Shown here: in pieces, positions 2,603 to 64,000 of the stretch | Layout of the letters: every line of letters begins with the position of its first letter | Position numbering within the stretch: position 1 is the stretch's first letter | NCBI RefSeq assembly: GCF_947507565.1 | Contig: NC_089176.1 | Span: forward strand, 4,019,882-4,083,881 | Length of the DNA stretch: 64,000 bases | Direction: 5' to 3' | Source: Oscarella lobularis | Lineage: Eukaryota | Translations under genes and position numbers: made by a program | Notes under the pieces: generated by a model | The model's database searches: none | Told to the model about the DNA's origin: nothing | Seen by the model: the letters and a program-made list of their open reading frames with translations, nothing else

Positions 2603-2640
2603 CATTTTTGATTCGTTCTTCTAATAATAATGATTATTTT

Positions 2641-3889: not shown

Positions 3890-4021
3890 CTTTCTCTCCG
3901 TAATTGGATTCAGTTTTAGCTTGATGATTTTTCGTTATATTATATCGATTGTCACGCGTTGCTTATGCGCATTTCCGGGGGTCAACGCCCTCGATTGGGG
4001 ACTCTCTTGGCTTACCAGTGC

Positions 4022-4819: not shown

Positions 4820-4867
4820 AGAGAAAGAGTTCTGTTCTTTTTGAGACATTAGAAATAGATGGTTAGT

Positions 4868-5010: not shown

Positions 5011-5062
5011 CGTCAGTTATGGAACTCATATATAAGATAGAGTAGTAACCTTTTCCTTCTCT

Positions 5063-10537: not shown

Positions 10538-10788
10538 CTTCGTCGCGGCACTGCGTTGCTTGATTTGGGGGGAATACGCTTCGTTCGAGTCTTCGTTTAG
10601 CTTCTGGGGTCGTGCGCTGTCATGAGGCGATGCTTCTGTTCGATTTCCTTTGTTTTGCGACGGTTGGGTGTTAGGGAAGCTAGCGCACGCGCTATGACGT
10701 GTTCACAAGACGTCAGACGCTCTAATTCGTTAGCAACGAAGACGATCGCGTGCGAGTGGCGCGAAATCAATGACGTCAATCGATTTTT

Positions 10789-41534: not shown

Positions 41535-41852
41535 TGCGATTGTGTACACGCGACGTCGGCGATGGAATGAGATCGTGTCGCGTGGACGGGGCTAATATAC
41601 ATGCGGAGATAGGGTATTCACCAGGGGAAGTGATCACATGACACGTGACTTATGTATGGGGGTGGGTCACTAACCTTTGCTTTGCTTTTGCGTCCGTTCT
41701 TTGAAACAGATCGAATTGGAACTTTGTGGGATTACAATTTCCGCTCGATTTTTTTCTTTTTCGCGTTCGTGTCTCGTCTCCTTCGAGTTCTCCCCGTACA
41801 GCACCCCACACACTAACACTAAGATAGTTTCACTTTCGCGCCGCATGACATT

Positions 41853-44325
41853 AGTCCGATTTATCGTCGTCCCCCGAACCGGCATCGTCGTCGTCGTCTT
41901 CGTCCTCTTCCTCACTTTCGAATTCGGCTTGAGGCACGTTGTAAATTCGAATGACTGCCTTCATTAGGGAAATAAAATTAGTTTTTGCCGTGGGGTGTAC
42001 AGTAAAACTGGGGGGAAAGTACCTTATTGGGATCTTTCAATATGAGATACTTGCCCGGAGCGAGTTTCAAGAGAAGATCGACAACAACGCGTAGGATTCC
42101 CCACGAATTGTGCACATCTAAATTGATTTGAGTTGCAAAATCTTTGGGACGATACTGTTGCGTTCCAAGAATGACGTGCTTTGTCGAATTGTAAGGATGA
42201 AGTCGAGATACGTATCTAAAGTAAAGAGATAAGATCAATTGAAAGGAGGAAGAAGGTACACCGCCCATCCGCCCTCTAAAGTAGCAACTACGCGCGCCCG
42301 GACGCGAGGCGCCACGCGAGGCGGGCGGGCGGCCGGCTGTGAATCTGCGGTCGCGCGGCTGTGCGTACGTACGTCTTATATATAGAACTTACCCAAATTT
42401 TAAGAGATGGGATCCAGCAAGGATGGCTGACATGGTCCATTTAGCCAGTTTAAAGCTATTGTTCTTCAGTTCGGTTGCCAAGACGGCGCCGCGTTGAGTA
42501 TCCAATTTGTGTCGCCAATCGGAAGCGCCAAACTATATACGGTAAAGTAGTTTTTTTATAGAGACATGCACGCGATACTGAGTATCTCTTTACTATGATC
42601 TGAGGATCCCATTCGTTGAGCGCTTTGATGTTGATACATTGTATGTCCGTTGATCCGGGTGCGGGCGGGAGAGCAGCGTCGAGTTCACATCGCGCAATCA
42701 GCTGCACGTTTTCACTCAGCTGAAACTTCCGATAGCGATATCCGACGGATGCTACTTCGCCCTCTTCCTCTTCATCAACGAATGGATTGGGATCGCCGAA
42801 TTGATGAACGGCTCCCTCCTCCTCAATTTTCAAACATAATAATGAATGGAGAAAAGTGAGTTTCTTGCTTACTTTTCTCAGGACTTGCTGCGAAAAATTT
42901 TGATTTATGAATGTCGCTTCGAGAGCTAAATTCGCGGGCGCGTTCATGCTGCTTCCGTCGTCTTGAGGCGGTTCTACGGCCGTCTCATTCACAGTCATCA
43001 AATCTGAAAAATTTATTAAATTGACGTCGTCATCACGCGGCGGAGGGGACAATGTATACCGAATTGAGACTTGTCTCGCTTGTCTAGAAAAAGAAAATTT
43101 TTTCCCACTCTCTAAAAGAAGAAAAGACTTAATTAAGTAATTAATTAGAGTATACATACTTGTGCAACAATGTCCCAAGAGTAGACAGATCGCGTGCACG
43201 TCATCAGAGTAGATAATATGGCATCTGTTGCAAAGACAATCAACTCCTCCGAATCTTTATACTTTTGGCTAAGCTGTTAAATAATAATAATTATTATTAT
43301 TATTTATCACGTGAAATCCTGGTACCTCTGGTATGACGGGATCATCGGATGTTGTCACTTTGTGAAATATTCTGTTTATTCCACGAAGCGGTTTTTCATT
43401 TTTCGTATTGACGCGATCATAACTTTTATCATAGAAGCCCATGGTACCATATTGTTTCCTAAAGAAATTAATTAATTAACAAGAGTTAGTAGAAGAGAAA
43501 CATCTTTGTTACAAATCTTCAGGTTCAGGTGGATCAATTCTCAATTTCGCCAAATTCTGAAAATCAACTTCCTGCACTATTTCCCATTCTCCTTTGACTT
43601 CGACAGAAGGTTCACGCAATTTCTGAGGACCCTACGAGAAATCAATAATAATATAATTAAATCCTAATTAATTTAATGATCAATACTCTGGAATGAGAAT
43701 AATAGATTCGACCGCGTTGATTCTTTCTCCAACGTCTCTCCTGTCTCATTCGATCTCGATCTCGACTCTTCTGAGCCTTAGTCAACGGTTGAACGAGACC
43801 CTTTTCCCTTTTCTCCTTCGGCGCTCTTTGCATACGTTGCTTTTAAAAAGTTAATTAAATTAACTAATTAAATTATGTAATTATTTAATTTTACCTGCGT
43901 GATTCTTTGTCTCTGTTTCTGATAAACGGATCGTTGAACTTTGCTCGTGTCGACGAGACGATATCCGACGTCATCTTCATCGTGGATGTACGAATACATT
44001 GAACCGGCCCCGCCCCCTCCGATTTGGGGCTGGTAACGATCTGCCCCATGACAAATCGACCTTTTTTCCGCTATTTTCCTCCTTCCATGTTTACTTACTC
44101 AAGTATTTTTTGTCTGAGTAGACGCTTCCTGTCCAATCGGACGCCTAAAGTGCCGTAATTCGACGATTTTTCGTCGTATCTTCTCGTTCGAACCTTTCCC
44201 AAGCGATCGGACTTGGAAAATGGTTGATAGGGAACGTCCTTGAATTGAGACGGCACGGCGCACGGTCCCCAGCCACTCGGATTGTCCTGAATCTCGGGCA
44301 GAAGAAAGAGAGGCTTCGACGCCAT
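41853..44325 (-). CDS. EIF3D: Eukaryotic translation initiation factor 3 subunit D, multi-exon.
   Basis: N-terminus '[45 protein letters not shown]'. '[38 protein letters not shown]'. '[52 protein letters not shown]'. Acidic C-terminal tail. Confidence 0.9.
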
Positions 44326-44450
44326 CTTGCGCGTTCTCTGAAAGCACGTGGAGACGCTGTCCCGGATAACCTTCTAAACGACCAACATCAAAAACTAATA
44401 TATAGTACGCATGCATGCAAGAAAAGAAAAGTGATTTTCGCCGCTGTTTA

Positions 44451-46881
<2,431 letters not shown>

Positions 46882-47085
46882 TGCTCCGCCGTCGAGTTCT
46901 GCAGCGAAGAAGTCGAATAGCGAATGGGTTCCTATTGGGGGGCCTCACCCGGGGGTGGTGGAGGGTATTGGTTCGTTTCTGCTGGCCCGTAAGCGCCTTC
47001 GTCCATCGTTTCAGGGCGAGAAATCGATTGCTGAGCTCAAAAAAAGATCGATTCGCACACAATCACGTGTAATTTAGCGTACGCT

Positions 47086-47960
47086 ACGATTCGATGGAAG
47101 AAGATTTACGAGAAGCTTCGTGCATCGGAGACGTCAACAAGGTCGTTCAACTACTTGAAAAAGGAGTCGATATAAACAGCCAGAACAAAGTGAACGGATG
47201 GTACACCTAAAAATTGGATTTGCTGTAGAAATTGATTTGAAACAATGTGTCTAATCATCTAGGACGGCTCTTCATTGGGCTTCTAAACGAGGTCACGCGT
47301 CCATAGTATCGACTCTATTGAAACAGGGAGCAAATGCTAATATAAAATCGAGCAAAGGACAAACGCCTCGACACGTAGCAATCGATTCTCACGTACTTTC
47401 ACTCTTACCACCGCCATCATCAGAAGAACTCGATGGTCAGTCAATAATTAGGCAAGAAAAATTATATCTTATCATCTTCTTAGATGATCTTATAGTAGCA
47501 AGTGAAACTCCACTTCCATTTCTTCCTAATTATCTTGCTCATCCAGAATTTTTCTATGCAACACGTCAACGTGGAAAGGATCTAGAGGAAGTTCCCCGTA
47601 GTCCTTGTTATGAATCAACAACTAATAAGCCTTCAATAGAAGGTGGTATTGTGGTCTAATGACATGTATTGTGATTGAGAGGTGGCATTGTGAATGCGGT
47701 TTCTTTTCATAGACCACAGTCGGATTGTGAAAGTGCGTCGATTTCATCCGCTTATCAATAGCGACTTTGTAGAAATTGAAATTATTGGAGAAAAGGGCGG
47801 CGGAATTTACGCAACGCTTCTTCATAAGATTTGTTGCGAATTGAACGTTTCGCGCGACGCTGTCGCGAAACTTCGTAAATTACCTAACACCTTAGTGCGA
47901 AATGACGACGACGTTCTTAGACTGAAACCTATGCAAGAACTCGAAGTCGTTTTGAAATGA
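47086..47960 (+). CDS. ANKRD40-like protein, with an N-terminal ankyrin pair and a conserved C-terminal domain. At least three exons.
   Basis: 'MEEDLREASCIGDVNKVVQLLEKGVDINSQNKVNGW' | 'TALHWASKRGHASIVSTLLKQGANANIKSSKGQTP'. 'LPFLPNYLAHPEFFY'. C-terminus 'IYATLLHKICCELNVSRDAVAKLRKLPNTLVRNDDDVLRLKPMQELEVVL'. Confidence 0.65.
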
Positions 47961-48501
47961 TTGGGGGCCCCGCACGTGCTTGAATAATTACCCTTTAATG
48001 GAAGTCATACGCCCATCCCTAGGGACTGTGCCAGTCCCGTTCAAACCGGTTGGCTTCCTCGATGATAATCAGTGTTTTCCTTGATCGAAACCCTTGAGAG
48101 TGCGCTTCTATAGGGAATTAGGTTATAGGCACTTTTAGGGCGCGTACATCATGATGTAGACACTACGGCGGCGGTTACGTTGTTTTGAGAATTCGACGTA
48201 GATGCAAATTAGTTTTTTGACAGCATGAGCCAGTGTAAGGGCCGAAGAAATGTCTAAGAACTGTACGATACCCTACAGCGAAACTGTAATGGCTTGGCAA
48301 TGCAAAGGGATTGGGGATTCTACCTAAGGAGACCCCTCGTAAAGCGACGGTCCCTTGGCACGTGATGGGGTAGTAGGGAGGAGGCGAATTGCATCATCAT
48401 AAATTGAAGACCCGAACTGCAGAGAGCAGCACTCTTGCACCAGCCGCCGTCGCGTGCACCGGACCTTCGATATATCCGACCTCTTTTACTCACCTTCAAT
48501 G

Positions 48502-49215
48502 ATGGAACGACCACGATACAAGCGTGAGCCGTCACCAGTGAAAAAAGCCAAGCCCCTAGGCGGCGGCTCCTTCCCGTCGCGATTCAACGTTACTCTCGTC
48601 CCCTTCGCATCGTCGAGCGGCTTCTTGAGCTCGTGCAGCAGCGAATCGGACTCCAATCACTCAAGTTATACAGACTTGCAGCTTTGGCCGTCGTCCAACG
48701 ACTACGACGTCCCCGAAAACACTCGCATGCCTTTTTTACGGCCCCCGCCGCTTCAGCGACAGCGGCGACGCAAACAGCACAAAGCCGCCGCTAATTCAAA
48801 GGCTCTCCTATCGAATTCTGCTCCGGCAATCCCCGCCAAGTCGTCTGGAGTCGGCAACGATCGATGGCGACGGCACAGCGCTCCCTCGCCATCGCGACTC
48901 GATTCTCCGCTAGCCCGTCAATTATCGACGGCTCAAACGGACTTTTCTTCGCACGTGGCGGCGGCATCGCGATCGTCGCCGCCGTCGCCGCCGTCTCCAC
49001 CCACGCCGTCGTCTCGTGATCAGATAGGGAGGAGAATGGTACGGGCGGAACCGCCATCGCCGCCGCAACCGCCAGTCAAAAAGGAACTACCAGAATTTCG
49101 ACTCCCTAGTATTCAATCAAAAGGAGCGAGACTCTTGTCGAAATCTGTGACGAATTTTGCTCCGCTTTTTGCAGCGGCGGCTCAACTTCGTACGGCGACA
49201 ACGAGCGTACACTGA
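48502..49215 (+). CDS. Intronless ORF encoding a Ser/Pro-rich, low-complexity basic protein. Unknown function, weak call.
   Basis: A 237-codon open frame from the ATG at 48502. It has no recognisable domain and is GC-rich. It could equally be non-coding. Confidence 0.25.
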   Translation: MERPRYKREPSPVKKAKPLGGGSFPSRFNVTLVPFASSSGFLSSCSSESDSNHSSYTDLQLWPSSNDYDVPENTRMPFLRPPPLQRQRRRKQHKAAANSKALLSNSAPAIPAKSSGVGNDRWRRHSAPSPSRLDSPLARQLSTAQTDFSSHVAAASRSSPPSPPSPPTPSSRDQIGRRMVRAEPPSPPQPPVKKELPEFRLPSIQSKGARLLSKSVTNFAPLFAAAAQLRTATTSVH

Positions 49216-49335
49216 CGTACGTTCTAACTCTTTCCTTGATAGTCAAGACTCTTGTAGTCATTGCTAACGTTTATCGAGTGTCTGTGTATGATGACGCGCA
49301 TGCAGATTATATCTTGCATGTCATTTGCCTCTATT

Positions 49336-51497
49336 TTCCAATACAAAATTGATCGAATATGATGTCGAGAATGTCTTCGGTTCCCACTTTGCCCGTTATT
49401 CGACCCAATTCAGTTAATGCGAGTCGGACTTCCTCTGCGGCGAGAACCGTTTCCATTTCCGCTAGAGTCATATGACGGAGGTGAGTAGGACTCACTCACC
49501 CAAAATAGCACAAGGTCGCGATCAAGGTCGGCGTGTGTGAGGTCGTTGCACGTGTTGGGTGGCGTGTGAGTGCGTACACAGGTAGTGCTTACCGCATTGA
49601 GATCGATCAAGACATTCCACGCATTCTCTGAGGTGTTTTCGATGTCGACTTCGAGTGAGAGACGGAGAATCAATCAAAGGATCACCGCATCTGAAATAAA
49701 GTAATTATATAGGAATAGGGGTTTTGATTTTACAGTTTCTTTAGTTCAGATTCGAGGAGTTGAAGTAGATGATCTATTCCAGCTGACGTTGTACAGGAAA
49801 TGGAGCAGGATACATACGCCTCATTCTTGATAGACAGGAAAATAGTCCCTTCTTTTTTCCTGCTGACCCTTACTTACTTTCAACATGCTACTAATGTAAC
49901 TTTCTTCTTCCGGACTCCTCAGATCGATTTTGTTAGCGACGACGATCAAACGTGCCGCCGTTCCCACGAAATGCGACAAAGATCCAAGACAAGACGAATC
50001 AATGACAACGAGTATTAAATCAGCGTTCTCAGCTCTGAGAACGAAGAGTCAATATATATAGATATTGGCTATTATTTTTGTACTTTTCTATTGCGCGTTT
50101 GACGCCCTCTCTTTCCACGGGATCGTTTGTTTTACGCAATCCCGCCGTATCACTTACGATGACTGGATAACCGGCGATATTCAATGCTGTCTCGATTACG
50201 TCTCGCGTTGTTCCGGCGACGGGGGAAACGATAGCGGCGGGGCGTTCGCCTGAAACTGAATGTTGGCTAAATTCAATGAAGGAGGAGGGAGTTACTTAGA
50301 ATATTGAGCAAGCTGCTTTTGCCCACGTTTGGTTCTCCGACTATAGCTAATCGAACGCCGCTTCGAAGACGTTCTCCACGTCTTGCGTCGCGTAAATGAG
50401 TGCGGATTTCGTCTATGATGCTTTTGATTTCTACTCTAGCTGTGAAGGAAGAAATTTGAGGGGGAGACTAGGAGAAGGAGTTTGAGTGTTTTGCCTTTAT
50501 CTAAGATATTGTCTTCTATGTCTTCACTCTCGCCAAAATCAATTGTTGCTTCGTAATAAGCTAAGCACTGTGAAGAATTCGCGATTAAATGGTTTCGTTG
50601 TTTCTACAGTACCTTGGCTAGAGAATTAGTCCATTTTGAATAGACTTTACTTAGGTGTCCCTAGGGTAGGTATGAGGATAATGTACATGTAATCTTGTGC
50701 TATTAACCTCCATCTGTCTCAATGCTTGTCGTCGTTGAACTTCCGTTTCGGCGTTAATTAAATCGGCCAAGCCTTCTACTTCCGTGAGATCAAATTTCCC
50801 GTTTAGAAATGCTCTAATTATTTAGTTAATAAATAAATAAATAAATAAATAAATAAATAGTGGGAGTGGAATGAGTGCGTGCCTCTTTGTGAATTCCCCG
50901 GGTTCTGCGTATCTTATGCCTTTTATAGACTGTAGTAGATCGGTCAAGGCAGATAGAACGGCTATGCTGCCATGCACGTGATATTCTACCACGTCTTCTC
51001 CTGTAAAACTGTTAGGGCCTACACAGTGTTACAAAGGTCATTCACATATAATGTACAGGGTCTTACGTGGAAACCAGAGAGCAATGGCTTTGTCAATGAG
51101 TTCATGCGTGACCGGATTGACGAGTTTTGTCAGTGTAGCTACTCTTGCTTGTGGAAGATGGTCCATTTTGCAAATATCTCGTAGAGTCTGGAGGCAGGAA
51201 AAACTGGAGGGATTGTCGGACTATCTGAGGTCGTACTTTAGAGGCCAAAGGCCCTGATACTCGAACAACAGCTACGCCTGTAAGGAGAGTGAGCTAGAAA
51301 TGTAGTAGAAGTAGAGAAGATTGCAATTCCCACCGCATTTTCCATGACCAGATGATAAAGCGAATATCGTAGGCGACCAATTTCTGTCACAAAACCGTCG
51401 CAAAAATACCAATTGCGCTCTGCAGTGTCGTTTGGCAGATTCGAAGCAAATAAATTGCTGCGAAGAAAGGAAAAGTTTTCTGAATAATACGGGCATT
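49336..51497 (-). CDS. GTPBP3: Mitochondrial tRNA-modification GTPase GTPBP3 (MnmE/TrmE homolog), multi-exon.
   Basis: N-terminal '[13 protein letters not shown](V)AVVRVSG'. '[14 protein letters not shown]', '[27 protein letters not shown]', '[12 protein letters not shown]', '[24 protein letters not shown]'. G domain '[39 protein letters not shown]', '[11 protein letters not shown]'. C-terminus '...[13 protein letters not shown]'. Confidence 0.8.
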
Positions 51498-51784
51498 TTT
51501 CCTGATGGCACGCAGCATAGATACACGCCGTAAGTCGTTTTCTTATAGTCTGTCCGCGTCTTACAGATTAGGCTTTCACCCGATGGGACCTCTACGATTA
51601 ATTTCCAATGCGTCTACGCGTCGTCCTACGAGGGTGCCGAGTCCTCGTGATTCTAAACTTCATCCCGAACTAAAGAAATCCTCAGATGAATGCATGGTGG
51701 ATTGATGGAACGTGCCAAGCGCCAAAACATTGTTTCGTGCTCCAGTGACGTCCCATCGGGGCCCCCTAGCTCCGTTGTTGATCT

Positions 51785-54120
51785 TTGTCTGGCAGTTGCG
51801 CTTTGACGTCGTTTCTTTGTTTAGACTATGAGGTCTTCCTTTTGTGCACGGAAACGTTTAAAGAATTGATGACAAACGTGCAGGAGAATCTTGCTGCTGA
51901 GGAGCATGGTATCAAGGCATTTTACGCCCCAACTAGCATTGATTGGGGCGGTTATCAAAGCGCTGCTATTGAAGAAGCGATTACGCAGTCCTCTCACGCT
52001 GTTATCATTTATTCCGATATACAAGATAGCTGTTGGACTTCTATTAGAGAGTCTATAGTTTGGAGGCAAATGTGCACCAAGCTAATCAAAGAATTGCCCT
52101 TAAGACCGCCTAATGTTTCTGAAGGCGACATCATAAGAACTATGCCGCTTTCTGCATCTAGGAAATTTAAAGAAGTTACTACTGAAACGTCTCCTACGAC
52201 GCTGGCGAAAAATATTGCTAAGGCGGTCAGAAACGAAAAGCAAGCTCCTTCTTCTAAATTGAGAGGCCAAGCTGATAAGAGGGTTGTTGTTCTTGACGAT
52301 GAGCCGTTCTGCCAAGATATATATAAGTAAGTATGCCCAAATAGGCCCAGTAGTTTTAGTTTGCAAATTCTTTAAATGGCTAGAGGTGTTTTCGTACGTA
52401 ATCAAAAGAAACGTTTGGTGGCTGTCAGAAAAGCTCTTTTGAATGACAAACGGATGAGAAATGAAATTGATATCTTGCAAGAATCAAGCAAATGCGACAA
52501 TTTGATTGGATTTATTGATGCCGTGGTAAGTCTACCATGTAGCGAGGACGTGTATTAGATGTCTACTGCAGACGATTGACACCGTTTGGCACTGCTGTCT
52601 TCAATATTGTGCATATTCAGTAGAACAAGTAGGTGCCCAGTCATCATAAATGCCATACGCGATGTGTATTCCTTTCATTTATTTGCAGTATGTACTTGAG
52701 AAGGCCCTACAGGACGTTATTGACGAAATTGACATTGTTCGTGGTGTTGCTAATGGCTTAGACTATCTTCACAGCAGGAAAAAACCGATAAGTAAGATGC
52801 CGTGTCCTTAATTAAGGTCATATTCGCTTTAACAATTAACTAATTAGCTCATATAAATCTCGCCCCTGCTGGCGTACGTATAATGGTGGAGGAAGACAGA
52901 AAGGCAGAAGCAAAAATTTGTGATATAAGTACTTCGCCCAGATTGTACGAACATGCAATGGAAGGATTCATTGTCAGAACAGTAGATGTGGGTAGGTGGG
53001 GCTGTGTGTTAGTATCTTACTTTTTGCAGAATCCGAGTCCTTATGTGGATGTCTTTTCGTTTGGATGCTTTGCGTACTACGTCATCACAAAAGGAGAGCA
53101 TCCGTTCAGTAAACCGGGGAGCGGGAGCAGTAAGCGAAGCGAAATTCAGTCAAGAATAGACTCTGGCGAGCATAAACCTACTTTCAAAGCGTTGGAAGGT
53201 GAGTTAATTAATTAATTAATTAAACGCGTATTTAGTGCGGCTTTAATTAATATTTTAGATTTGGTGAACGAAAGCATGCAACCGAAGGTGGATGAAAGCA
53301 GAGAAGCGGGGTTGAAAGAAAAAATTAGACGTATAGGGAATCCAGCAGCAGCTTTGGAGCTTGTGAAATCTACGTTAGGCAAAGGAAAAAAGTGAGTTTG
53401 CCTGTCAGTGCGTGCCTTCTCAGCAGATGCAGCTCGTTGCTGTGAACGCCTAGGCCTTCATCTTGCTGTATTAAAAGTCACTGTTACTTTTTCGAGCCGG
53501 CTCGCCAAGTTGATTTTCATACTGTACGTGGTGGTAATCATTATTCAACTTCATTGCTGTTACGGTTTCTACACAGAAATTTGGCTCTTGTACACCATTT
53601 TATGAAGAGATGGATCCTAAGATGGATCCTAAGAGTGCGAACGTGCGGCACTGGCTTTTGGACGAATTGGCTAACCATGATGAAGAAGTCCTTGGTTCTA
53701 CCACGTTGTGGGGAGCTAAATTTAAATATTTGGAAGCAAAAGGAGGTAGTGTTCTCGTAGTTACTTCTCATTAACTCTTTGTTAAAAGCGTTTCTAGATT
53801 TTCTAAAGAAGTGTGAAAATAGGTGCGATACATACGGAAATTCCGTGCAATCCCTTTCAAAATTCCTGCGTAATCAAGTACGAAACTTTGTGTTTTCAAA
53901 AAATAAACTAACTATAGGACGATACGTATAGTTCTGCCACGAACTTAACGATGACAAAATAGAAGAATTTTTTCAATTGACGAATGAAAAGAAAGCAGTG
54001 TTTCTCAACCGTGGGTTTCCCCGACTTCTTCCTGTATGCTGGGAGATAAGCAAGAAAGTACCCAATTTGTCTGTGTATGGGTATCACTGCAAGAAGCATT
54101 CGGCAATCACCTTTTCATGA
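51785..54120 (+). CDS. Kinase-like gene, probably a pseudokinase, with an unknown N-terminal domain. Multi-exon, and the structure is uncertain.
   Basis: Exon 1 is ORF 51785-52330 and has no known domain. Then 'RLVAVRKALLND...EIDILQ', 'GLDYLHSRKKPI', and 'HINLAPAGVRIMVEEDRKAEAKICDISTSP' (HRD becomes HIN, DFG becomes DIS), then 'DVFSFGCFAYYVITKGEHPF'. Further exons run to '...VFLNRGFPRLLPVCWEISKK...*' at about 54120. Confidence 0.4.
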
Positions 54121-54232
54121 CATCTCGGACTCTAGCCTTTTTTTTTTTAGTTTTTACGCTGTTGCACTCACTGGCTGTTTTTCTTTCGCTTTGTATGTTG
54201 TTATTGATTTATACGGGCATTTTCACGTGGAG

Positions 54233-54913
54233 ATGTTGCTGGTTGGCCTTTCAGGCGGAATAGCAAGCGGTAAAAGCACCGTTTCGCGACTATTGTTGGA
54301 TTGCGGATGTCCTATCATCGACGCCGATCAAATAGCTCGCCAAATCGTGCAGCCGGGCTTGCCTAGCTGGCACGCGATCGTTCGCAAATTTGGCCGAGAA
54401 ATTTTGAACGAGGACGAAACGATAAATCGCGAAAAACTCGGAAAAATCATATTTGATGATCCAGCTAAGCGAAGAGTGCTGAACGGTTGCACGCATCCGG
54501 CCATATTACGCAGAATGTTGTGGCAAATTTTGACGAATTTTATTCGAGGAGAAAAAGTCGTAATCTTAGATTCTCCGCTTTTGTTTGAGAGTGGAACGTT
54601 TGTTCGATACGTTCATCGTACAATTGTTGTATGGTGTTGCGAGGAAAGGCAAATTGAGAGACTTTACCTTCGAAATGGATTTGATAGAGACAGCGCTCTC
54701 AAGAGAATTTGTGCTCAAATGCCATTGGACGAAAAGCGTCGAAGGGCTACGTACGTTATTGATAATGACGGTCAACTAGAAAATACAAGACAGCAAGTTC
54801 AAGAAATTTACAAAGAACTCATCAAGTCGAAGTGGTGTTTGATGGGAAGGATTTTTAGACTGTCTTGTTCTTTTCTTATAGGACTTTTTGTAGCTCTATG
54901 GTTTCTGTCGTAA
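54233..54913 (+). CDS. Dephospho-CoA kinase (CoaE)-like P-loop protein with a hydrophobic C-terminal tail. Copy A, intact, single exon.
   Basis: 'MLLVGLSGGIASGKSTVSRLLLDCGCPIIDADQIARQIVQPG...AIVRKFGREILNEDETINREKLGKIIFDDPAKRRVLNGCTHPAI...VVILDSPLLFESG...TIVVWCCEERQIERL' follows the dephospho-CoA-kinase fold pattern. The tail is 'CLMGRIFRLSCSFLIGLFVALWFLS*'. Confidence 0.7.
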   Translation: MLLVGLSGGIASGKSTVSRLLLDCGCPIIDADQIARQIVQPGLPSWHAIVRKFGREILNEDETINREKLGKIIFDDPAKRRVLNGCTHPAILRRMLWQILTNFIRGEKVVILDSPLLFESGTFVRYVHRTIVVWCCEERQIERLYLRNGFDRDSALKRICAQMPLDEKRRRATYVIDNDGQLENTRQQVQEIYKELIKSKWCLMGRIFRLSCSFLIGLFVALWFLS

Positions 54914-55041
54914 TGATAGCACGGAATCTGAATTTCTGGAAGGTAGACCGTACTGTAAGACGGACTGGGCGTAGCCGGCGTGGGCGTAGCCGGCGTGGGC
55001 GTAGCGAAGGGTACAGTACAGTATGTACGGGAATTGCAAAG

Positions 55042-58000
55042 ATGGCGAATGCGGTCGAAAACGCGGCGACGGCGGAGCAACTAAACTACACGAACCCTTT
55101 GTCGTCGAAAAGTGATCAAGCACACGATCGTTTAGGAGCCGATATGGTTACCCGTGACCTGCTTATAAAAGCGTCGAAGAGAATCGCCTCGGTTTGGGAG
55201 AGCATTGCGAGACACCTTGACGTTCCTGAAGAAAGAATTAAAGCGATTCTTTGTGACTCTAATTTCAGAAATTTAGAAAAAAAGGCCTACGAAATGTTGG
55301 ATAAGTGGTGGGAAAAGAATTACAAAGAAGCCACGGAGGCGAAACTGTGTCTTGCTCTGTTGAGTGAAGAAATGACAGCAACGGCATCGGATCTCTTTGG
55401 AGACGAACTTGTTGAAGCTTTGAAGAGTTCAAAAAAAGGTAAGACTGATGTGATGGCTTATTTCGTCTTCTACACACTAATGATTATCGAACAGGTAGTA
55501 CCTTTTCCCAGCCCCAGAAGCAGCAAATCCAGCGCAACGGAAGTGATCTCGACACGACATCATTTGGGTCTAGAAAGGAAGAAATGAGAGCATCCTTTTC
55601 TAGCACAGAGTCGACTAAGCTCACAAGCAGCCAGGTAGGGGAAACAGATGGGAGAGAAACACAAAGTGAGCTGTTTTTGCTAACAATCTTTATTCATAAA
55701 TTGTGCTCTGCAGAACCAGTCATGTCTACTGAAGGGGCGTACGCACTTGGAGACGAAAATAAAGCATTCTGTACAGGTGATGGTGAGTGAATTAAAATTT
55801 TAGGGAATCGACGGATACGACTAGATTGTTTTGGTAGAGTTTTTGCGGCAAGGCTATCTGCAAAACAGATGCCTTTTGAGCTCACCGAAACCATTTTTTG
55901 GAAGGAAAAAAATTAGCGAAGATGTTGTCAACGCAGTAGAACAAAGGACGCCCGTTTGCTGGATTTGGGGTCCTCCCGGATGTGGAAAAAGTGCCGTCGC
56001 AATTAATGTTGTTCACAATCTAAATAAATCAGGCAACTATTCAATACCAATGTTCTTGGAAGAACCAAGCAACGTGAAACAAGTGGAGGAATTTATAATG
56101 TTGCATCTAAAGCGCGCTGAAACGTTTCAATCATACAAAGTGTTTTTTATTGACAAATGTTACACCATGTTAAAAAAGGAAGACGAGGAGGAGAAGTTTG
56201 TTGAAGCGATGGAGCGACTTTCTAAGTCTCATCCTCATGCGTTCACAGTTATAATTACAGCGTACGAAAAGCCTTCACTTCACTACAAACTCAACATCAG
56301 CTCACTAAAAGTCTCATGGCCTGACAGAACAGAAGCGGTCGAACTATTGGCCTTGAGCTGCAGAGGCGTCGACGTTAACGCAGTTAAAAATCACTACTAT
56401 CTAACCCAACTGCTTGCGTCTTGCTGCTGTAGAATGCCTTTTGCTATTATTGCTGTTGGATCAGTCTGGGTCGAGCGGCTTGAGTCCACCACAGATGTAC
56501 CTGCGTCTCTGCGAGAGCAACTTGAGTGCTTCCGTAATAGACACTCACTGTTTCAAGACTTTTGTGAAAATTTTGATAGCAAAAGGAGAGTTCTTCAAAA
56601 GTGCTTTGAAAAGTTTTATTTGTATTTATCTGCCGACTTGCAGAAAGCTCTTCGCTGTCTTTCGGTTGTTAACGGATCTTTTAGCAAAAACTGTGGAGAA
56701 CGATTTCTTGGTAAAGACGTTACTCAAGGAAAAATAACTAGTTTGTTGATGCTCGGTATTCTTGAGTCAGAAGAATGTCATCATTACTCTATACCGGATC
56801 TTTTTCGTCAGTATGTACTGACTCTAAGTGATCATCAGGACGCGCACGAACGTGCGAGAGCGGCGTATTGCAAGTATATAAAAAAAGTAATGGTTCAAAT
56901 GTGGAAAAATCGTAAAAGCGCGAAAGCATTAGAGATTTTTCAAGCCAACAGAAGAAGAATTGAAGGATTTTTAGAGGATTCTACTTCAATTGAAAGCGAC
57001 GCTGGTAAGAGTCTTGCCCTTGTCATTTGTATGACGGAGTACTCAATAGACGGCAAAGTGCTGCTAGAATGCACTTCGCCTTCTATTATCTGCCAATTTT
57101 GCAAATCGTGCCTAAAAAGCTCGCGTTTTCATGAAGAAGACCGTTTACATGTCTCTTTATTCTACGCTCAAGTCCTCCTACATCGGTGTCCGAGGCGTCG
57201 TATTGATGCGATTGATCGACAGCTTTCATTTTGTAAAACTCATTTGGAAGCGTTGTCAGCAGACAAGCAAGAGAGTTTCAGAACAAGATACTTGGTAACA
57301 TTGGTTGAATTGTGTTTGGTGAAGGGAACGAGCTTACTAGACGAAGATTTGGATGAAATAGAGAAGCAGAAGAGACTGCAGAATAAGGCTGCGCGACTAG
57401 CTGCAGCAAAAGCGCGCTTTCAACTGGGCGCGATGAGTTATGGAAAAGATGTCGATAGAGCACACGGTCATTTGAACGAGGCTGTTAGACACTTCAGAGA
57501 GTGCCGGGATGAACTACGCGAGACAGACTGTTCTAGATGTTTACATCAAATGTGGATTGGTGATTGTCTCTTTCGAAAGGGAAACTACAAAGACGCTCTC
57601 GGCGTTTTCAATGATCTATTGAAGGAGATAGAAGAAGTGTCTTGGCCTGGCGAAGGCGTTGAAACCAAAGACAGAAAAAACATGCGTATCTCTGCTATCT
57701 GTTATGCTCAAGGTTTGTCTCAAACTCTGCACTGTTTTGCTGAGAATTCTGGATGGAATGCCGATCAGCTGAAAGAGTGCCTTAAGTTGTTCGAGTCTTC
57801 GCTTGAATATATCCGAAATTGCTCCAACTCACCTTTTCTGCATTTTATTTACCTGGCAAAAGGAAAGCTGCATTTGTTGCTTTTTCTATGTGGAGAAGAA
57901 CATGATTCTAAACAATTGGAGTTGGCAACTCAATGCTTTGAAAAAGCGGCCGAAAATGACCGTATTCAATGTGAAGCCTCTTCTTTTGAGAAGATCTGCA

Positions 58001-58653
58001 ATGCTCCAGGCAAACTTTCAACGAAGAACATTTTTGATTCGGCCAAGATATTTCTTCCTTCAAGCGGCGGCTTTGTCAACATGCAAGAACTTTTCAAAAG
58101 CTGTAAGCGGCGGAACGAAGCGTTAGATCCTTACAAATCTCTCGGAATAAGTCTTTTTGCAAATTCTGCTTTGTATCTGGACAGCTTAAAAAGGGAACGG
58201 AGCAAAGAAGTAGTGTCGCTAGAAAAGGAAGACGTCGACTTCGAGTTTTCTGATGAGGACGACGACGAGGAAGAGGAAGAGGAAGAGGAAGAGGAAGGGG
58301 TTTGGTGGGAAAATGATGTAAAAGCTCAAACCGAGTTTCCAGACGAGAATTCTTCACGTAGGTTATTAATACCATCTAATTGCTTTCGGTCTCTGTCTCT
58401 TTTTGAGCAACACCAACTCTGTCGTCGAAGTAGTGAATCGCGTGGGAATACCAATACTCTAACCAATTTCGATAGTAGCCTCAGTCAGTGGCAAGTCTCA
58501 AGTTATGCTGCTGGTGATGGTGGCGGTGGTCTAGAAAAAAGGGAACGAATTGATCAGAAGTCTATTGGTATTCGCAGTCAAGATGACGAGAGCTCGTTGG
58601 AACTGATATCTTTAGTGGCTGAGCCTCCAACTATGTCAAAATCGCCGCCTTAA
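55042..58653 (+). CDS. NLR-like receptor: death domain, then a STAND P-loop NTPase (NB-ARC/NACHT-like), then TPR-like helical repeats, then an acidic tail. Three exons: 55042-55438, 55495-55782 and 55838-58653.
   Basis: Death-domain exon 'LLIKASKRIASVWESIARHLDVPEERIKAILCDSNFRNLEKKAYEMLDKWWEKNYKEATEAKLCLALLSEEM'. Walker A 'VCWIWGPPGCGKSAVAI'. Walker B 'KVFFIDKC'. A long alpha-helical repeat region follows. Poly-E tract 'DEDDDEEEEEEEEEEEG'. Splice phases were checked (1, 1, 0). Confidence 0.7.
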
Positions 58654-58711
58654 GATTTATTTTAAGTGGACTGAACAATGTTGCTAAGGCATCGCTACTT
58701 TTTCAGCCGTT

Positions 58712-59420
58712 TAGAAATGCTCTAATTATAATTATTTAGTTAATAAATAAATAAATAAATAGTGGGAGTGGAATGAGTGCGTGCCTCTTTGTGAATTCCC
58801 CGGGTTCTGCGTATCTTATGCCTTTTATAGACTGTAGTAGATCAGTCAAGGCAGATAGAACGGATATGCTGCCATGCACGTGATATTCTACCACGTCTTC
58901 TCCTGTAAAACTGTTGGGGCCTACACAGTGTCACAAAGGTCGTTCGCCTATAATGTACAGGGTCTTACGTGGAAACCAGAGAGCCATGGCTTTGTCAATG
59001 AGTTCATACGTGACCGGATTGACGAGTTTTGTCAGTGTAGCTACTCTTGCTTGTGGAAAATGGTCCATTTTGCAAATATCTCGTAGAGTCTGGAGGCAGG
59101 AAAAACTGGAGGGATTGTCGGACTATCTGAGGTCGTACTTTAGAGGCCAAAGGCCCTGATACTCGAACAACAGCTACGCCTATAAGGGGAATGAGCTAGA
59201 AATGCCGTACTATAGAAGATTGTATTTCCCACCGCATTTTCCATGACCAGATGATAAAGCAAAGATCGTAGGCGACCAATTTCTGTCGCAAAAACATCGC
59301 AACTGTTGCAGAATTGCTCGATGACGTCGTTTGACCGATTTGAAGCAGAGAAATTGTGGCCAAGAAGGAAAACGTCGATTGAATAATACGGGCATGTCTT
59401 TTCTAACGTGCGTCTTGCGA
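58712..59420 (-). pseudogene. Duplicated fragment of the GTPBP3 5' region (promoter, exon 1, exons 2-3). It is a paralogous copy of 50806-51530.
   Basis: Near-identical sequence. Compare ORFs 58874-59086 and 58914-59159 with 50972-51184 and 51051-51257. 59210-59458 (-) encodes '[18 protein letters not shown]' as in GTPBP3 exon 1. No downstream GTPBP3 exons follow. Confidence 0.6.
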
Positions 59421-59424
59421 CGAG

Positions 59425-60003
59425 ATGTTGCTGGTTGGCCTTTCGGGCGGGATAGCAAGCGGTAAAAGCACCGTTTCGCGAATACTGTTGGACTGCGGAT
59501 GTCCTATCATCGACGCTGATCAAATAGCTCGCCAAATCGTGCAGCCGGGCTTGCCTAGCTGGCACGCGATCGTTCGCAAATTTGGCCGAGAAATTTTGAA
59601 CGAGGACGAAACGATAAATCGCGAAAAACTCGGAAAAATCATATTTGATGATCCAGCTAAGCGAAGAGTGCTGAACGGTTGCACGCATCCGGCCATTTTA
59701 CGCAGAATGTTGTGGCAAATTTTGACGAATTTTATTCGAGGAGAAAAAGTCGTAATTTTGGATTCTCCGCTTTTGTTTGAAAGTGGGACGTTTGTTCGAT
59801 ATGTTCATCGTACAATTGTTGTATGGTGTTGCGAGGAAAGGCAAATTGAGAGACTTTATCTTCGAAATGGATTTGATAGAGACAGCGCTCTCAAGAGAAT
59901 TCGTGCTCAAATGTCATTGGACGAAAAGCGTCGAAGGGCTACGTACGTTATTGATAATGACGGTCAGCTGGAAAATACAAGACAGCAAATTCAGGAAATT
60001 TGA
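59425..60003 (+). CDS. Dephospho-CoA-kinase-like copy B. It is truncated: a stop follows 'QQIQEI' and it lacks the hydrophobic tail.
   Basis: About 95% identical to copy A over 'MLLVGLSGGIASGKSTVSRILLDCG...TRQQIQEI*'. It sits directly after the duplicated GTPBP3 5' fragment. Confidence 0.55.
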   Translation: MLLVGLSGGIASGKSTVSRILLDCGCPIIDADQIARQIVQPGLPSWHAIVRKFGREILNEDETINREKLGKIIFDDPAKRRVLNGCTHPAILRRMLWQILTNFIRGEKVVILDSPLLFESGTFVRYVHRTIVVWCCEERQIERLYLRNGFDRDSALKRIRAQMSLDEKRRRATYVIDNDGQLENTRQQIQEI

Positions 60004-60049
60004 TGAGTACTGTATTCCTTTCATTTATTTGCAGTACGTACTCAAGAAG

Positions 60050-61480
60050 GATTGAGCGTATGACACCCTAAAGGGCGTTGTCAATGAAATTGGGATTGTT
60101 CGTGGTGTTGCTAGTGGCTTAGACTATCTTCACAGGAGGGAAAAACCGATAAGTAAGGTGCTTAGCTTAGGTTTCTCAAGTAAGCCACTTTAATAACAAT
60201 TAATTAGCTCGTATAAATCTCACCCCCTGCTGGCGTACGTATAATGGAGAAAAACGGAAAGGCAGTAGCGAAGATTTGTGTTACAAGTACTTCGTCCGAA
60301 TTGAATGAACAGGCAATTAATTGCAATGGAAGGATTCATGTCTCCTGAATTCACCGTCAGAACAGTAGATGTGGGTAGGCGGGGCTGTGTGTCAGTGTCT
60401 TATTTCTGTAGAATCCTGATGCGGATGTCTTTTCGTTTGGATGTTTTGCGTACTACGTCATCACGAAAGGACAGCATCCATTCTGTGAACCGGGGAGCGG
60501 GAGCAGTGAGCGAAGCAAAATTCAGTCAAGAATAAACTCTGGCGAGCATAAACCTACTTTCGAAGCGTTGGAACGTAAGTTAATTAATCAATTGATTAAT
60601 TAAACACGTATTTAGTGCCGCTTTAATTAATATTTTTAAAATTTACTCTACGTAGATTTGGTGAGCAAAACCATGAAACTGGAGGTGGAAGAAGACGAAC
60701 TTAGACGTATAGGGAATCCAGCAGCAGCTTTGGCGCTTGTGAAATCTACGTTGGACGAAGGAAAAAAGTGAGTTTGCCTGTCAGTGCGTGCCTTCTCAGC
60801 AGATGCAGCTCGTTACTGTGAATAGGCCTTCATCTTGCTGTATTACAAGTCACTGTTACTTTTTCAACCCGGAACGCCAATGCCATTTTCATCATGTACG
60901 TGGTAATCATTACTCAACTTCGTTGTTGTTACGATTTCTACGCAGGATTTTGGCAATTGTACACCATTTTATGAAGGGAAGAGAACTGGTAATATGGACA
61001 TGGACCCGCTTTTGGACGAACTGTCTGAACACGAAAAAGAAGTCTTTGGTTCTACCAAGTGGGGAGTTCGACTTCTAAGTTTTGGAGCAAAAATAGAAAT
61101 TGAAAATGGTATTGTTTTCTCATAGTTAGTTCTTATCAACTCTTTGTTAAAAGCGTTCTAGATTTTCAGTTCAAGGTTGCATTTAAGGGTAAGGGCGGGA
61201 GAGATGCAGCCAAAAAGTACGACAATTCCATTCAAGGTTTTTCATATTTCCTGCGTGATCAAGTATGAAACTTCGTGTTTTCAAAAATAAACGAACTACA
61301 GAATGATACATGTAGTTTTCTCACGAACTTAACGATGAGAAAAAAAGAGAATTTTGGGAATCGGATGATAAGAAAGCATTGATGCTCAACCGTGGGTTTC
61401 CCAGGCTTCTTCCTGTGTGCTGGGACATAAGCAAGAAAATGCCCAATTTGTCCAAGTATCACTGCGACGAGAAGCATTAG
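60050..61480 (+). pseudogene. Degenerate second copy of the kinase-like gene, paralogous to about 52690-54120.
   Basis: Recognisable remnants 'GIVRGVASGLDYLHRREKPI', 'KICVTSTSSELNEQAINCNGRIHVS', 'VLRTTSSRKDSIHSVNRGAG', 'MLNRGFPRLLPVCWDISKKMPNLSKYHC', with frame disruptions. Confidence 0.4.
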
Positions 61481-61757
61481 ACAATGACCTCTTCATGATA
61501 TCTCTGCCTCTAACCCTTTTTCTAGTTCTACATTTTTACACTGTCAGTTGCACTCACTGACTGTTTTTTTTCTTCGTTTTATACTGTATGTCGTTAGTCT
61601 ATATGGATGCTGCTGGCCGGTCACTACTAATTAACCGTTCTCGGTATTTAATTAACGAAAGCTGTCCGAGGCTACCTGATGATGTACAGTACAGTGGAGA
61701 GGGCGTGCACTAGCCACCCCCGCGTACGGGAGTACGGGAGTGAGATTTCGATCCAAG

Positions 61758-62021
61758 ATGGCGACTGCGAGCGAAAGAGACAGGGTTCCCAAAAGGCATC
61801 GCCTTCGGGCGGTGGCCAGCTACATCGGCCCATACTGGGAGCATATCGCTGACCACCTTCTACTCGAGTCCTCTTGTGAAAGGACCATTGAGAGGATTCG
61901 CCGTGATTACAAGTTCTCTCAAGATCAAGCTTTCCAAATGTTGTGCACGTGGTCGGAAATGTTTCATACGGAAGCTACAGAGGAGAAACTGTGCCTTGCT
62001 CTATTAAGCGAAGAGTGCTGA
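61758..62021 (+). CDS. Small death-domain-only ORF (DD-2).
   Basis: 'MATASERDRVPKRHRLRAVASYIGPYWEHIADHLLLESSCERTIERIRRDYKFSQDQAFQMLCTWSEMFHTEATEEKLCLALLSEEC*' has a death-domain-like pattern (W..IA..L, qAf.ML..W, ATxxxLxxAL). Confidence 0.45.
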   Translation: MATASERDRVPKRHRLRAVASYIGPYWEHIADHLLLESSCERTIERIRRDYKFSQDQAFQMLCTWSEMFHTEATEEKLCLALLSEEC

Positions 62022-62449
62022 ACGGTTGCACGCATCCGGCCATTTTACGCAACATGTTGTGGCAAATTTTGACGAATTTCATTCGAGGAGAAAAAGTCGT
62101 AATTTTGGATTCTCCGCTTTTGTTTGAAAGTGGAACGTTTGTTCGATACATTCATCGTACAATTGTTGTATGGTGTTGCGAGGAGAGGCAAATTGAGAGA
62201 CTTTATCTTCGAAATGGATTTGATAGAGACAGCGCTCTCAAGAGAATTCGTGCTCAAATGTCATTGGATGAAAAGCGCCAAAGAGCTACGTACGTTATTG
62301 ATAATAACGATCAGCTGGAAAATACAAGACAGCAAACTCAACAAATTTACAAAGAACTCCTCAAGTCAAAGTGGTGTTTGATGGGCAGGATTTTTAGACT
62401 GTCTTGTTCTTTTCTTATAGGTCTTTTTGTAGCACTATGGTTTCTGTGA
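62010..62449 (+). pseudogene. C-terminal half of a dephospho-CoA-kinase-like copy (copy C), fused out of frame onto the end of the DD-2 exon.
   Basis: 'RRVLNGCTHPAILRNMLWQILTNFIRGEKVVILDSPLLFESGTFVRYIHRTIVVWCCEERQIERL...CLMGRIFRLSCSFLIGLFVALWFL*' has no P-loop half. The junction sequence 'ttaagcgaagagtgctgaacgg' is shared with copy A ('ctaagcgaagagtgctgaacgg'). Confidence 0.5.
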
Positions 62450-62523
62450 TAATACATTTAATTGGATTTATGAATTAGTGAGCCAGTGACGCGCGAGTCG
62501 TTTATACGGGAATTGCAACGAAC

Positions 62524-62926
62524 ATGTCGTCGAAACTGCCGCACGATCTAGCCGCCGGCGCTGGACAGAAATTGCCAAGTGCGATTCGTCGTCTCAAGGA
62601 TAGAGGGAATGGTTGTAGTAGCGTAGAACGATTTTACAGACGAGATACTTCTCGACCTCGCGAAGAAAATCGGCGGAAAGTGGGATTTTGTAGCAGTCCG
62701 GCTTGGGTTGGCAGATCACGAAACTGAGAATATCCGTGACAATTTCACGAAAGTGCAAGACCGAGCTTTTGAAATGTTGAAGACGTGGCGACAGAATGCC
62801 TTCAAAGACGCAACTCGTACCAATCTCTGTATCGCCTTGCTTAAAGAAAAATTGAAGAGTATCGCGTCGGAAACTTTTGGGGATGACTTTGTTGAAGGGG
62901 TCGACAAATCATTATCGCAGAAGTGA
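62524..62926 (+). CDS. Death-domain protein DD-3. Probably two exons, with a very short intron at about 62608-62636.
   Basis: 'MSSKLPHDLAAGAGQKLPSAIRRLKDRGN' | 'EILLDLAKKIGGKWDFVAVRLGLADHETENIRDNFTKVQDRAFEMLKTWRQNAFKDATRTNLCIALLKEKLKSIASETFGDDFVEGVDKSLSQK*'. Confidence 0.45.
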
Positions 62927-63089
62927 AGGTGATTTTCAAGAAACACGATGATTTGTCCAAGTATCACTGCGAGAAGCATCCGACAGTGTGATATCTCTGC
63001 TCTAGCTCTTTTTCTAGTTTTTACGCTGTTACTTTCTTTCTTTTGCTTTTTGTTATTATCATACGGGCATGTTCAATGTGGATACAGTA

Positions 63090-63300
63090 GCAAGCGGCGA
63101 AAGCACCGTTTCGCGAGTACAGTTGGATTGCGGATCGACGCCGATCAAATAGCTCGCCAAATCGTGCAGCCGGGCTTGCCTAGCTGGCACGCGATCATTC
63201 GCAAATTTGGCCGAGAAATTTTGAACGAGGACGAAACGATAAATCGCGAAAAAGTCGATCCAGCCAGCTAAGCGAAGAGTGCTGAATGGTTCCAGCTATT
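63090..63300 (+). pseudogene. Decayed dephospho-CoA-kinase-like fragment (copy D) with internal deletions.
   Basis: '...ASGESTVSRVQLDCGSTPIK', then 'IARQIVQPGLPSWHAIIRKFGREILNEDETINREKVDPAS*', then 'AKRRVLNGS' in shifting frames. Confidence 0.45.
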
Positions 63301-63410
63301 TTACGCAGCACTTCACGAGTAGTCTGGAGGCCACACCTATGCCACGGTCACGTGCAAGGGTCAGGTGACCTGACTACTTCACGAGCGAGTCGATTATACG
63401 GGAATTGCAA

Positions 63411-63805
63411 CAAACATGGCGGCGCACGTCGGGGCTGGAGAAGAATTGTCAGGTACAATCCGTCGTCCCAAGGATAGAGAATGATTGTAGCAGCGTAGAA
63501 ACGATTTTACAGATAAGACACTTCTCGACGTCGCGAAGAAAATCGGCGGAAAGTGGGATTTTGTAGCAGTCTGGCTTACGCCCAAGTTGGAAGAGCATGA
63601 AATTGACAATATCAAAGCCAATTTTACGAGAGTACAAGACCAAGCTTTTGAAATGTTGAAGATGTGGCGAAAGAATGGCCACAAAGCTGCAACTCCTACC
63701 AATCTCTGTGTCGCCTTGCTTGAAGAAAAGTTGAAGAAAATCGCGTCGGAAACTTTTGGGGATGACTTTGTTGAAGGGGTCGACAAATCATTATCGCAGA
63801 AGTGA
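63411..63805 (+). CDS. Death-domain protein DD-4, a paralog of DD-3 with the same two-exon layout.
   Basis: 'MAAHVGAGEELSGTIRRPKDRE...' | '...LLDVAKKIGGKWDFVAVWLTPKLEEHEIDNIKANFTRVQDQAFEMLKMWRKNGHKAATPTNLCVALLEEKLKKIASETFGDDFVEGVDKSLSQK*'. The last 72 residues are about 80% identical to DD-3. Confidence 0.45.
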
Positions 63806-64000
63806 AGGTGATTTTCAAGAAACACGATGATTTGTCCAAGTATCACTGCGAGAAGCATCCGACAGTGTGATATCTCTGCTCTAGCTCTTTTTCTAGTTTT
63901 TACGCTGTTACTTTCGTTCTTTCTTTTGCTTTTTGTTATTATCATACGGGCATGTTCAATGTGGATACAGTAGCAAGCGGCGAAAGCACCGTTTCGCGAG

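Follow-up and report, generated by a model that had tools for sequence, protein, structure and literature searches.

A 64,000-nucleotide stretch of the Oscarella lobularis genome (NCBI RefSeq assembly GCF_947507565.1, contig NC_089176.1, positions 4,019,882 to 4,083,881 of the forward strand) was analysed; it is referred to here as the window, and its own coordinates are used throughout. Near its right end, at position 62005, a truncated death-domain (DD) open reading frame (ORF), DD_C, runs into the middle of a dephospho-CoA-kinase-like gene, of which only the 3' half, DCAKD_C, follows. This junction, J2, is probably the product of a microhomology-mediated join of the first exon of a DD gene to the middle of a DCAKD gene; the join is out of frame and most likely left a pair of dead fragments. 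J2 is also the right edge of a 2.0-kb block, whose left edge, J1, is a second non-homologous join. The three copies of the kinase-like gene are designated DCAKD_A, DCAKD_B and DCAKD_C (also DPCK_A, DPCK_B and DPCK_C), and the features on which the argument rests are the following.

61758-62021, + strand: DD_C, truncated DD ORF, ATG at 61758 and TGA at 62019-62021, 87 aa plus stop
62005-62015, + strand: J2 microhomology TAAGCGAAGAG, the 11-nt zone readable as either parent in the three-way alignment
62005-62453, + strand: DCAKD_C, 3' half of the gene (codons ~80-226), frame 62006-62449, hydrophobic tail kept
59425-60003, + strand: DCAKD_B, positions 2-179 of 180 of the CoaE profile (E 3.6e-59), P-loop present, 96.7% identical to DCAKD_A
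54227-54913, + strand: DCAKD_A, intact reference copy, 226 aa
55042-55437, + strand: DD_A, first exon of the neighbouring DD + STAND-NTPase + TPR gene

The junction at 62005

Comparison of the window with itself by blastn places the start of the DCAKD homology exactly at 62005, which corresponds to 54466 in copy A and to 59658 in copy B; the segment 62005-62453 is 93.3% identical to 54466-54914 of copy A over 449 bp, and 62005-62348 is 95.3% identical to 59658-60001 of copy B over 344 bp. An earlier note, made from the letters of this DNA, had described a DD ORF joined to the middle of a dephospho-CoA-kinase-like gene, and these identities, together with the DD homology upstream, bear it out. 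The three-way alignment that the same note proposed shows the switch between the two parents within 62005-62015: the chimera tracks the DD family through the GAG at 62015, and it is identical to the kinase copies from the T at 62005. The DD and DCAKD copies align with each other across this 11-mer only, and blastn detects no DD-DCAKD similarity; J2 thus has no extended homology.

Regarding the reading frames, the earlier note was right that the same nucleotides are read differently in copy A: the DCAKD frame, in which AAG at 62006 is a codon, lies +2 from the DD frame, and in copies A and B the junction nucleotides encode AKRRVLNGCTHP. Because of this offset, the DD ORF enters the shared and kinase-derived sequence for five codons and then meets a stop (LSEEC*), so that its last five codons and the stop fall in microhomology or DCAKD-derived sequence; the kinase frame 3' of the junction is open through its natural stop at 62449. 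The offset and the TGA at 62019-62021 support the view that the fusion is out of frame and probably a pseudogene. A 33-mer across the junction had no match in JGI metagenome contigs.

The microhomology

The shared string at the breakpoint is shorter than the 20 bp first proposed: only the 11 nt TAAGCGAAGAG, at 62005-62015, can be assigned to both parents, and everything 3' of it belongs to DCAKD only. A short shared string at the breakpoint is nevertheless probable, and the crossover would lie inside these 11 nt. On the kinase side, TAAGCGAAGAG is invariant in copies A and B and in the copy on the alternate haplotig (see below), and it is present also in the degenerate copies. On the DD side, TAAGCGAAGAG read in the DD frame gives (L)SEE, as in the closest DD paralogs; the two closest, both of the LLSEE type (one from this contig, the other from the alternate haplotig), read TGAGTGAAGAA in the corresponding codons, identical at 8 of the 11 positions, and all three differences are at synonymous third positions. 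More distant DD paralogs match TAAGCGAAGAG at 4-6 of the 11 positions of the homologous site. By our own estimate, the chance that kinase sequence would encode the LSEE of the DD family exactly where the DD homology ends is about 1e-5, and a microhomology-guided join is therefore accepted.

As for the DD parent, a word-indexed protein search returned the DD_C ORF alone, an exhaustive phmmer search of 1.84 billion cluster representatives gave no relative of DD_C above 46% identity, and blastn and tblastn over 72 kb of contig sequence and 20 kb from the alternate haplotig gave nothing closer to DD_C than DD_A. Since the parent gene was not found, its part in the match has to be read from its paralogs, and from these we infer that the lost parent carried the same 11-mer; in a join guided by 11 nt of microhomology, it would carry TTAAGCGAAGAG at the homologous codons.

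The two fragments

DD_C is recognizable as a death domain by several comparisons: it matches Pfam Death (PF00531) at positions 3-70 of 86 (E 1.9e-4; 21.9 bits, slightly below the gathering score of 22.6), it has 43% amino acid identity with DD_A by tblastn (E 4e-10), and its database relatives by phmmer are multi-DD, ZU5-DD, DD-FIIND-CARD and DD-NACHT-LRR proteins. It is not a complete six-helix domain, profile positions 71-86 being absent. The DD gene family had been taken to end in LCLALLSEE; this does not hold, because all eight other DD copies run about 20 DD residues beyond LSEE ([ML]..IAS[DE].F) before reaching the intron, at a GTAAGA donor. DD_A displays the sequence that DD_C is missing after LSEE, and ends at a GTAAGA splice donor. 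Given that the family continues past LSEE, DD_C has lost the last helix, plus the whole NTPase/TPR body. At its other end, the fragment carries about 100-140 bp of its own upstream sequence, which includes the following element.

61725-61741, + strand: two tandem TACGGGAGT motifs, 17-25 nt upstream of the DD_C ATG

These motifs may be a core-promoter element brought in with the DD fragment.

As for the kinase half, its family is established by copy A, which from the second in-frame Met is identical to RefSeq XP_065826875.1, annotated as 'dephospho-CoA kinase-like [Oscarella lobularis]'; its relatives are animal DCAKD proteins, and the best named match is from the sponge Corticium candelabrum (59%). 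Another DCAKD protein, 56% identical (P0004), was set aside, as it comes from a different sample and is uninformative on O. lobularis paralogs. DCAKD_C covers positions 78-179 of the 180 of the CoaE profile (PF01121), against 2-179 in copies A and B, and is thus not full length. Copies A and B have the Walker A P-loop, GxxxxGK[ST]; none of the six frames of 61596-62449 contains a match to it. The description of this locus as a death-domain/P-loop fusion is therefore not borne out; fusing the two parts in frame would not give a DD/P-loop protein either, since the P-loop is missing.

Substitution patterns were compared on a three-way tree of the 342 nt shared by the copies. On the C branch there are 8 nonsynonymous and 5 synonymous changes, and omega (~0.45) cannot be told apart from neutral evolution (p 0.13); for the A and B branches together the counts are 3 nonsynonymous and 10 synonymous, with omega at ~0.08 and neutrality rejected (p 4e-5). 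Side by side, these values suggest relaxed constraint on the C branch, although the difference is not significant (Fisher p 0.11).

DCAKD_B is cut at J1, 34 codons short of its end, and has lost the hydrophobic tail; since the truncation lies ahead of this C-terminal tail, a soluble 192-aa kinase is predicted, and the copy may still be making it. As a separate observation, the private changes of DCAKD_B are all synonymous (3 synonymous, 0 nonsynonymous).

The 2-kb block and its left edge

Mapping by blastn and tblastn shows that the cluster is built in tandem from a repeat unit of the type [TIR/kinase][DCAKD][DD + STAND-NTPase + TPR]. One intact unit precedes the region of interest, and the block interrupts what follows.

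51785-52330 (TIR), 52665-54203 (K), 54227-54913 (DCAKD_A), 55042-58653 (DD_A/NLR_A): Unit 1, intact
58707-59395: X' repeat, between NLR_A and DCAKD_B
60001-60011, + strand: J1, DCAKD_B (at the equivalent of position 54809 of copy A) joined to a kinase intron (at the equivalent of 52665)
60002-62004, + strand: 2.0-kb block between DCAKD_B and DCAKD_C, with K', a decayed DCAKD 5' remnant and the 5' part of DD_C
60011-61596, + strand: K', 3' fragment of a kinase gene, beginning at an intron acceptor, frame broken
61446-61648, + strand: decayed DCAKD 5' remnant to the left of DD_C, with N-terminal extension, start codon and gapped traces of the P-loop region (right limit uncertain, 61596-61648)
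59658-60001 and 62005-62348, + strand: 344-bp DCAKD segment flanking the block on both sides, 95.3% identical

An anchored comparison with the DCAKD and K copies limits the microhomology at J1 to about 4 nt at most (ATGA/GATG), with about 5 nt of unclear origin. K' is 75-77% identical to K (52665-54203) and to a further copy, K'' (window-equivalent 65628-67077). A perfect 24-nt palindrome, TTAATTAATCAATTGATTAATTAA, was seen inside K' at 60580-60603.

The alternate haplotig

A DCAKD protein with 97% identity (P0002) is encoded on atg000654l, an alternate hifiasm contig of the same assembly (locus L002). The first 9973 bases of this locus match window positions 41486-51496 with 98.4% identity; they are followed by one uninterrupted DCAKD gene of 226 aa and then by a DD gene, and both K' and DD_C are absent from the locus. 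Of the two assembled haplotypes, then, only one appears to carry the chimeric junction. The DCAKD gene of the alternate haplotig is itself a mosaic that resembles B over its 5' part and C over its 3' part, with the switch between the equivalents of 54646 and 54730, within the shared 344 bp; its X repeat has the same left/right composition, X-like and then X'-like. Because these switches lie inside paralogous repeats, the two arrangements are related by exchanges within repeats.

The haplotypes also differ at a larger scale: atg000654l does not have the whole ~7.9-kb unit (TIR/kinase, DCAKD_A, DD_A/NLR_A) that the primary sequence has between X and X' (51497-58706), and further downstream the two are only 68-91% identical, so that the locus is structurally hypervariable. 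The alternate haplotig could represent the ancestral state or a product of recombination between repeats.

Proposed explanation

In the explanation that we favor, the first exon of a DD gene would have been broken past codon ~86, ahead of the last DD helix, and joined to a DCAKD gene broken in its middle, at codon ~80, by means of the 11-nt TAAGCGAAGAG carried by both sequences. The pathway would be microhomology-mediated end joining or replicative template switching, and not homologous recombination. The DD ORF ends one codon past the shared string, at a TGA supplied by the DCAKD sequence. Two routes could have led to the primary arrangement: one duplication-insertion, in which the template switched away from DCAKD at nt ~580 and returned at nt ~237, or the loss of two separate segments from a longer array. 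In their overlap the flanking DCAKD copies differ by 4.7%, so the event is either old or the result of two separate deletions; this divergence, together with an alternate haplotig that is only ~92% identical to DCAKD_C and its 3' flank, speaks against one very recent step. What the sequence shows directly is where the breaks lie, how the frames are offset, which motifs are missing, that the DCAKD side carries the 11 nt, and that the gene is unbroken on the alternate haplotig; how the ends were repaired, in what order the events took place, and that the fragments are neither expressed nor functional is what we infer. Since the fusion is out of frame and its DCAKD part has neither P-loop nor start, both DD_C and DCAKD_C are most likely non-functional fragments.

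Several points weigh against this explanation. DD_C keeps an intact ORF and a putative promoter motif of its own, and it could still be expressed. The DCAKD_C ORF is open over 147 codons and its nonsynonymous excess does not reach significance; this might reflect that the event is recent, that other copies have converted the gene, or that some function remains. The ~92% identity of the alternate haplotig to DCAKD_C and its 3' flank is to be counted here as well, and the 11-mer assigned to the DD parent is reconstructed from paralogs that are 43% identical.

Alternative explanations

Among the competing explanations, the one that survives best, while still unlikely, is that the chimera is expressed as a stand-alone, C-terminally truncated DD protein of 87 aa, driven by its own promoter motif and using the 3' half of DCAKD as 3' untranslated region and terminator, for instance as a decoy or regulator of DD signalling. 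Its ORF is intact from ATG to stop, the two TACGGGAGT motifs lie at the distance given above, as for other genes of the cluster, and the DCAKD 3' end has been kept together with the downstream region. However, the missing positions 71-86 of the profile, the last helix, are retained in every paralog; the transcript-derived and annotated sources searched hold no protein identical or similar to DD_C; and DD_C is found on one contig only, occurring once in the protein collection, on ENA contig ptg000371l (hifiasm, ERZ18545485).

A further possibility, to which we give a low probability, is that the 2-kb block works as a reversible structural switch: its presence would truncate DCAKD into the 192-aa kinase devoid of the membrane tail and yield a separately transcribed mini death-domain protein, and an exchange across the 344-bp duplication would restore the intact, membrane-anchored gene that the alternate haplotig carries. 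If so, the locus would not be a dead remnant; it would be a polymorphism with a function, tying a CoA-pathway-like kinase to an innate-immunity cluster.

An assembly artefact, in which the contig wrongly merges reads from a DD gene and from a DCAKD copy, is conceivable in a dense cluster of paralogs and on a short (108 kb) hifiasm contig, but it is very unlikely: the shared string of 11 nt is far under any assembler overlap, and K', DD_C, B and C are all unique, being 3-25% diverged from every other copy seen. Moreover, the patchwork measures 2.5 kb in total, which is less than a typical HiFi read.

There is very little room for a normal two-domain gene, whether obtained through a short intron or a programmed frameshift, or by splicing out the 2-kb block, leaving B and C to encode one intact DCAKD between them. 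In its favor, DCAKD_C has an open frame as far as its natural stop, and B plus the tail of C would rebuild the protein of the alternate haplotig. However, the frames are +2 apart with the stop at 62019-62021, and a scan of the sequence gave neither a credible donor nor a slippery site. In detail, 111 GT...AG combinations would join the two frames; all 12 donors within the DD ORF are poor (GTGGCC, GTCCTC and GTGAAA among them), none of the 12 resembles the cluster donor (the best, GTGAAA and GTGATT, compare with GTAAGA in DD_A), and each frame-restoring intron deletes domain sequence, removing part of the DD or the CoaE fold. As for a programmed frameshift, no XXXYYYZ slippery heptamer precedes the stop, and the DD/DCAKD product would have no P-loop. 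Regarding the block as an intron, the 344-bp overlap offers no AGGT for exact excision (judged by eye, not scanned), and the one intron inferred in the cluster is ~56 nt long, not 2 kb.

The protein searches agree with this. They covered the best 120 CoaE matches, the five members of the 90% cluster and the DD_C relatives listed; among these no protein combined PF00531 with PF01121, and the in-frame fusion paralogs that the earlier note suggested looking for were not found. Among the matches listed, no annotated or assembled protein contained DD_C, a DD/CoaE combination, or DCAKD_C fused to any other sequence, and no two-domain or block-spliced product was annotated. Literature searches on the Oscarella genome and its NLRs, and on DCAKD function, gave nothing of relevance to this locus.

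Finally, capture by a transposon or as cDNA, which would account for a mosaic of fragments from three genes in 2 kb, as in Pack-type captures, is no easier to credit: the block 60002-62004 has no terminal inverted repeats, its pieces (K' - DCAKD remnant - DD) follow one another as K, DCAKD_A and DD_A do in a normal unit of the cluster, the 344-bp flanking duplication is not a transposon target-site duplication, and the block begins inside a kinase-gene intron, at the intron acceptor, and is therefore genomic DNA and not cDNA.

Other features of the cluster

Downstream of J2, at least three tandem units follow, each with a DD exon and a degenerate DCAKD 5' fragment, from 62489 to window-equivalent ~65161 (positions 10750-13422 of locus L001). 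These units are 87% identical to one another; their DD first exon ends in a premature TGA, and the degenerate DCAKD starts 20 bp later. The P-loop region of these DCAKD fragments is destroyed, and the fragments end at the equivalent of ~54505-54512, about 40 bp from the J2 breakpoint.

The P-loop that does accompany DD in the genes of the cluster belongs to a separate STAND/AAA-type NTPase ORF of 940 aa (55831-58653), which is unrelated to CoaE. It follows that J2 does not show the origin of the domain combinations of the cluster, a broader claim of the earlier note that is not supported. Near the C-terminus of this NTPase/TPR ORF, a poly-Glu run is encoded by a GAGGAA hexamer repeat (58255-58297).

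The motif TACGGG[AC][AG]T (TACGGGMRT) occurs 12 times, against 1.06 expected.

51488, 54212, 55026, 59387, 61725, 61733, 62505, 63062, 63397 and 63945, + strand: ten TACGGGMRT sites, spanning 51488-63953
23760 (- strand) and 27027 (+ strand): TACGGGMRT sites elsewhere in the window

In the cluster, most copies precede a DCAKD or DD start codon by about 10-45 nt, and one is at the end of X, before the TIR ORF; the motif may be a core-promoter or transcription start site motif of O. lobularis. Several homology blocks were also seen to terminate at TACGGGMRT.

Other observations concern the DCAKD genes. DCAKD_A has an in-frame upstream extension at 54077-54226 (MGITARSIRQ..., with a hydrophobic stretch), the RefSeq start being the downstream Met; the extension is recognizably kept before the decayed DCAKD copies, at 61446-61527, 62948-63019 and 63830-63898, and either an alternative membrane segment at the N-terminus or a conserved leader at the 5' end is conceivable. 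A perfect 15-bp tandem repeat, TGGGCGTAGCCGGCG, in 2.7 copies (54966-55005), was seen in the 129 bp that separate DCAKD_A from DD_A. DCAKD_A sits within the TIR/DD/NTPase cluster, has been co-duplicated with it several times, and is the only O. lobularis protein among the DCAKD matches listed; we know of no described reason for this linkage.

Beyond the region studied, duplications were seen within 82-5159 (for example 566-839 versus 4025-4298, 90%) and within 12743-15003 (12743-13700 versus 14055-15003, 71%).

Comparison with known systems

The locus is of use in two respects. For annotation, support from transcripts should be required before the DD ORF at 61758-62021 or either CoaE ORF (59425-60003, 62006-62449) is called as a gene of its own or as part of a fusion. 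For the biology of the species, the locus marks strong structural variation between haplotypes in O. lobularis, and constitutes a documented structural polymorphism.

Of the two proteins involved, animal DCAKD (CoaE, PF01121) is represented by copy A as a full-length member, with P-loop and C-terminal hydrophobic tail; 62005-62449 differs in being a piece of a member, devoid of residues 1-79 (Walker A included) and of a start codon in a sensible context. Likewise, the homologues of DD_C in the cluster are the first exons of its DD + STAND-NTPase + TPR genes, and these genes resemble the DD + NTPase genes (NLR-like, STAND) that are expanded in sponges and other early-branching animals; unlike them, DD_C has neither the last helix nor the NTPase/TPR body, and what comes next is an unrelated DCAKD in another frame.

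Regarding the mechanism, J2 and J1 resemble the junctions left by microhomology-mediated or alternative end joining (MMEJ/alt-EJ), or by fork stalling and template switching and microhomology-mediated break-induced replication (FoSTeS/MMBIR), in that unrelated sequences are joined with a probable short identity exactly at the breakpoint, 11 nt at J2 and ~4 nt at J1; here, however, the DD parent is missing and the sequence alone does not assign the pathway. The 344-bp duplicated segment that flanks the inserted block, and the gene pieces left truncated and out of frame, recall template-switching duplication-insertions. The mosaic of the alternate haplotig, with its switches within repeated segments as expected for paralogous crossovers, is like the haplotype polymorphisms produced in tandem arrays by non-allelic homologous recombination (NAHR); that process relates the two haplotypes to each other, but it does not explain how the DD/DCAKD junction was formed.

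In conclusion, J2 is most probably a scar of the ordinary sort that microhomology-mediated rearrangement leaves, here in a tandem cluster of NLR-like genes that is evolving rapidly; it adds one more example to a known kind and brings no new domain architecture or mechanism. It offers a clean example of the reshuffling of tandem clusters of the innate-immunity type in an early-branching animal, where joins at short microhomologies make gene fragments, and haplotypes gain or lose whole units through exchange between paralogous repeats.

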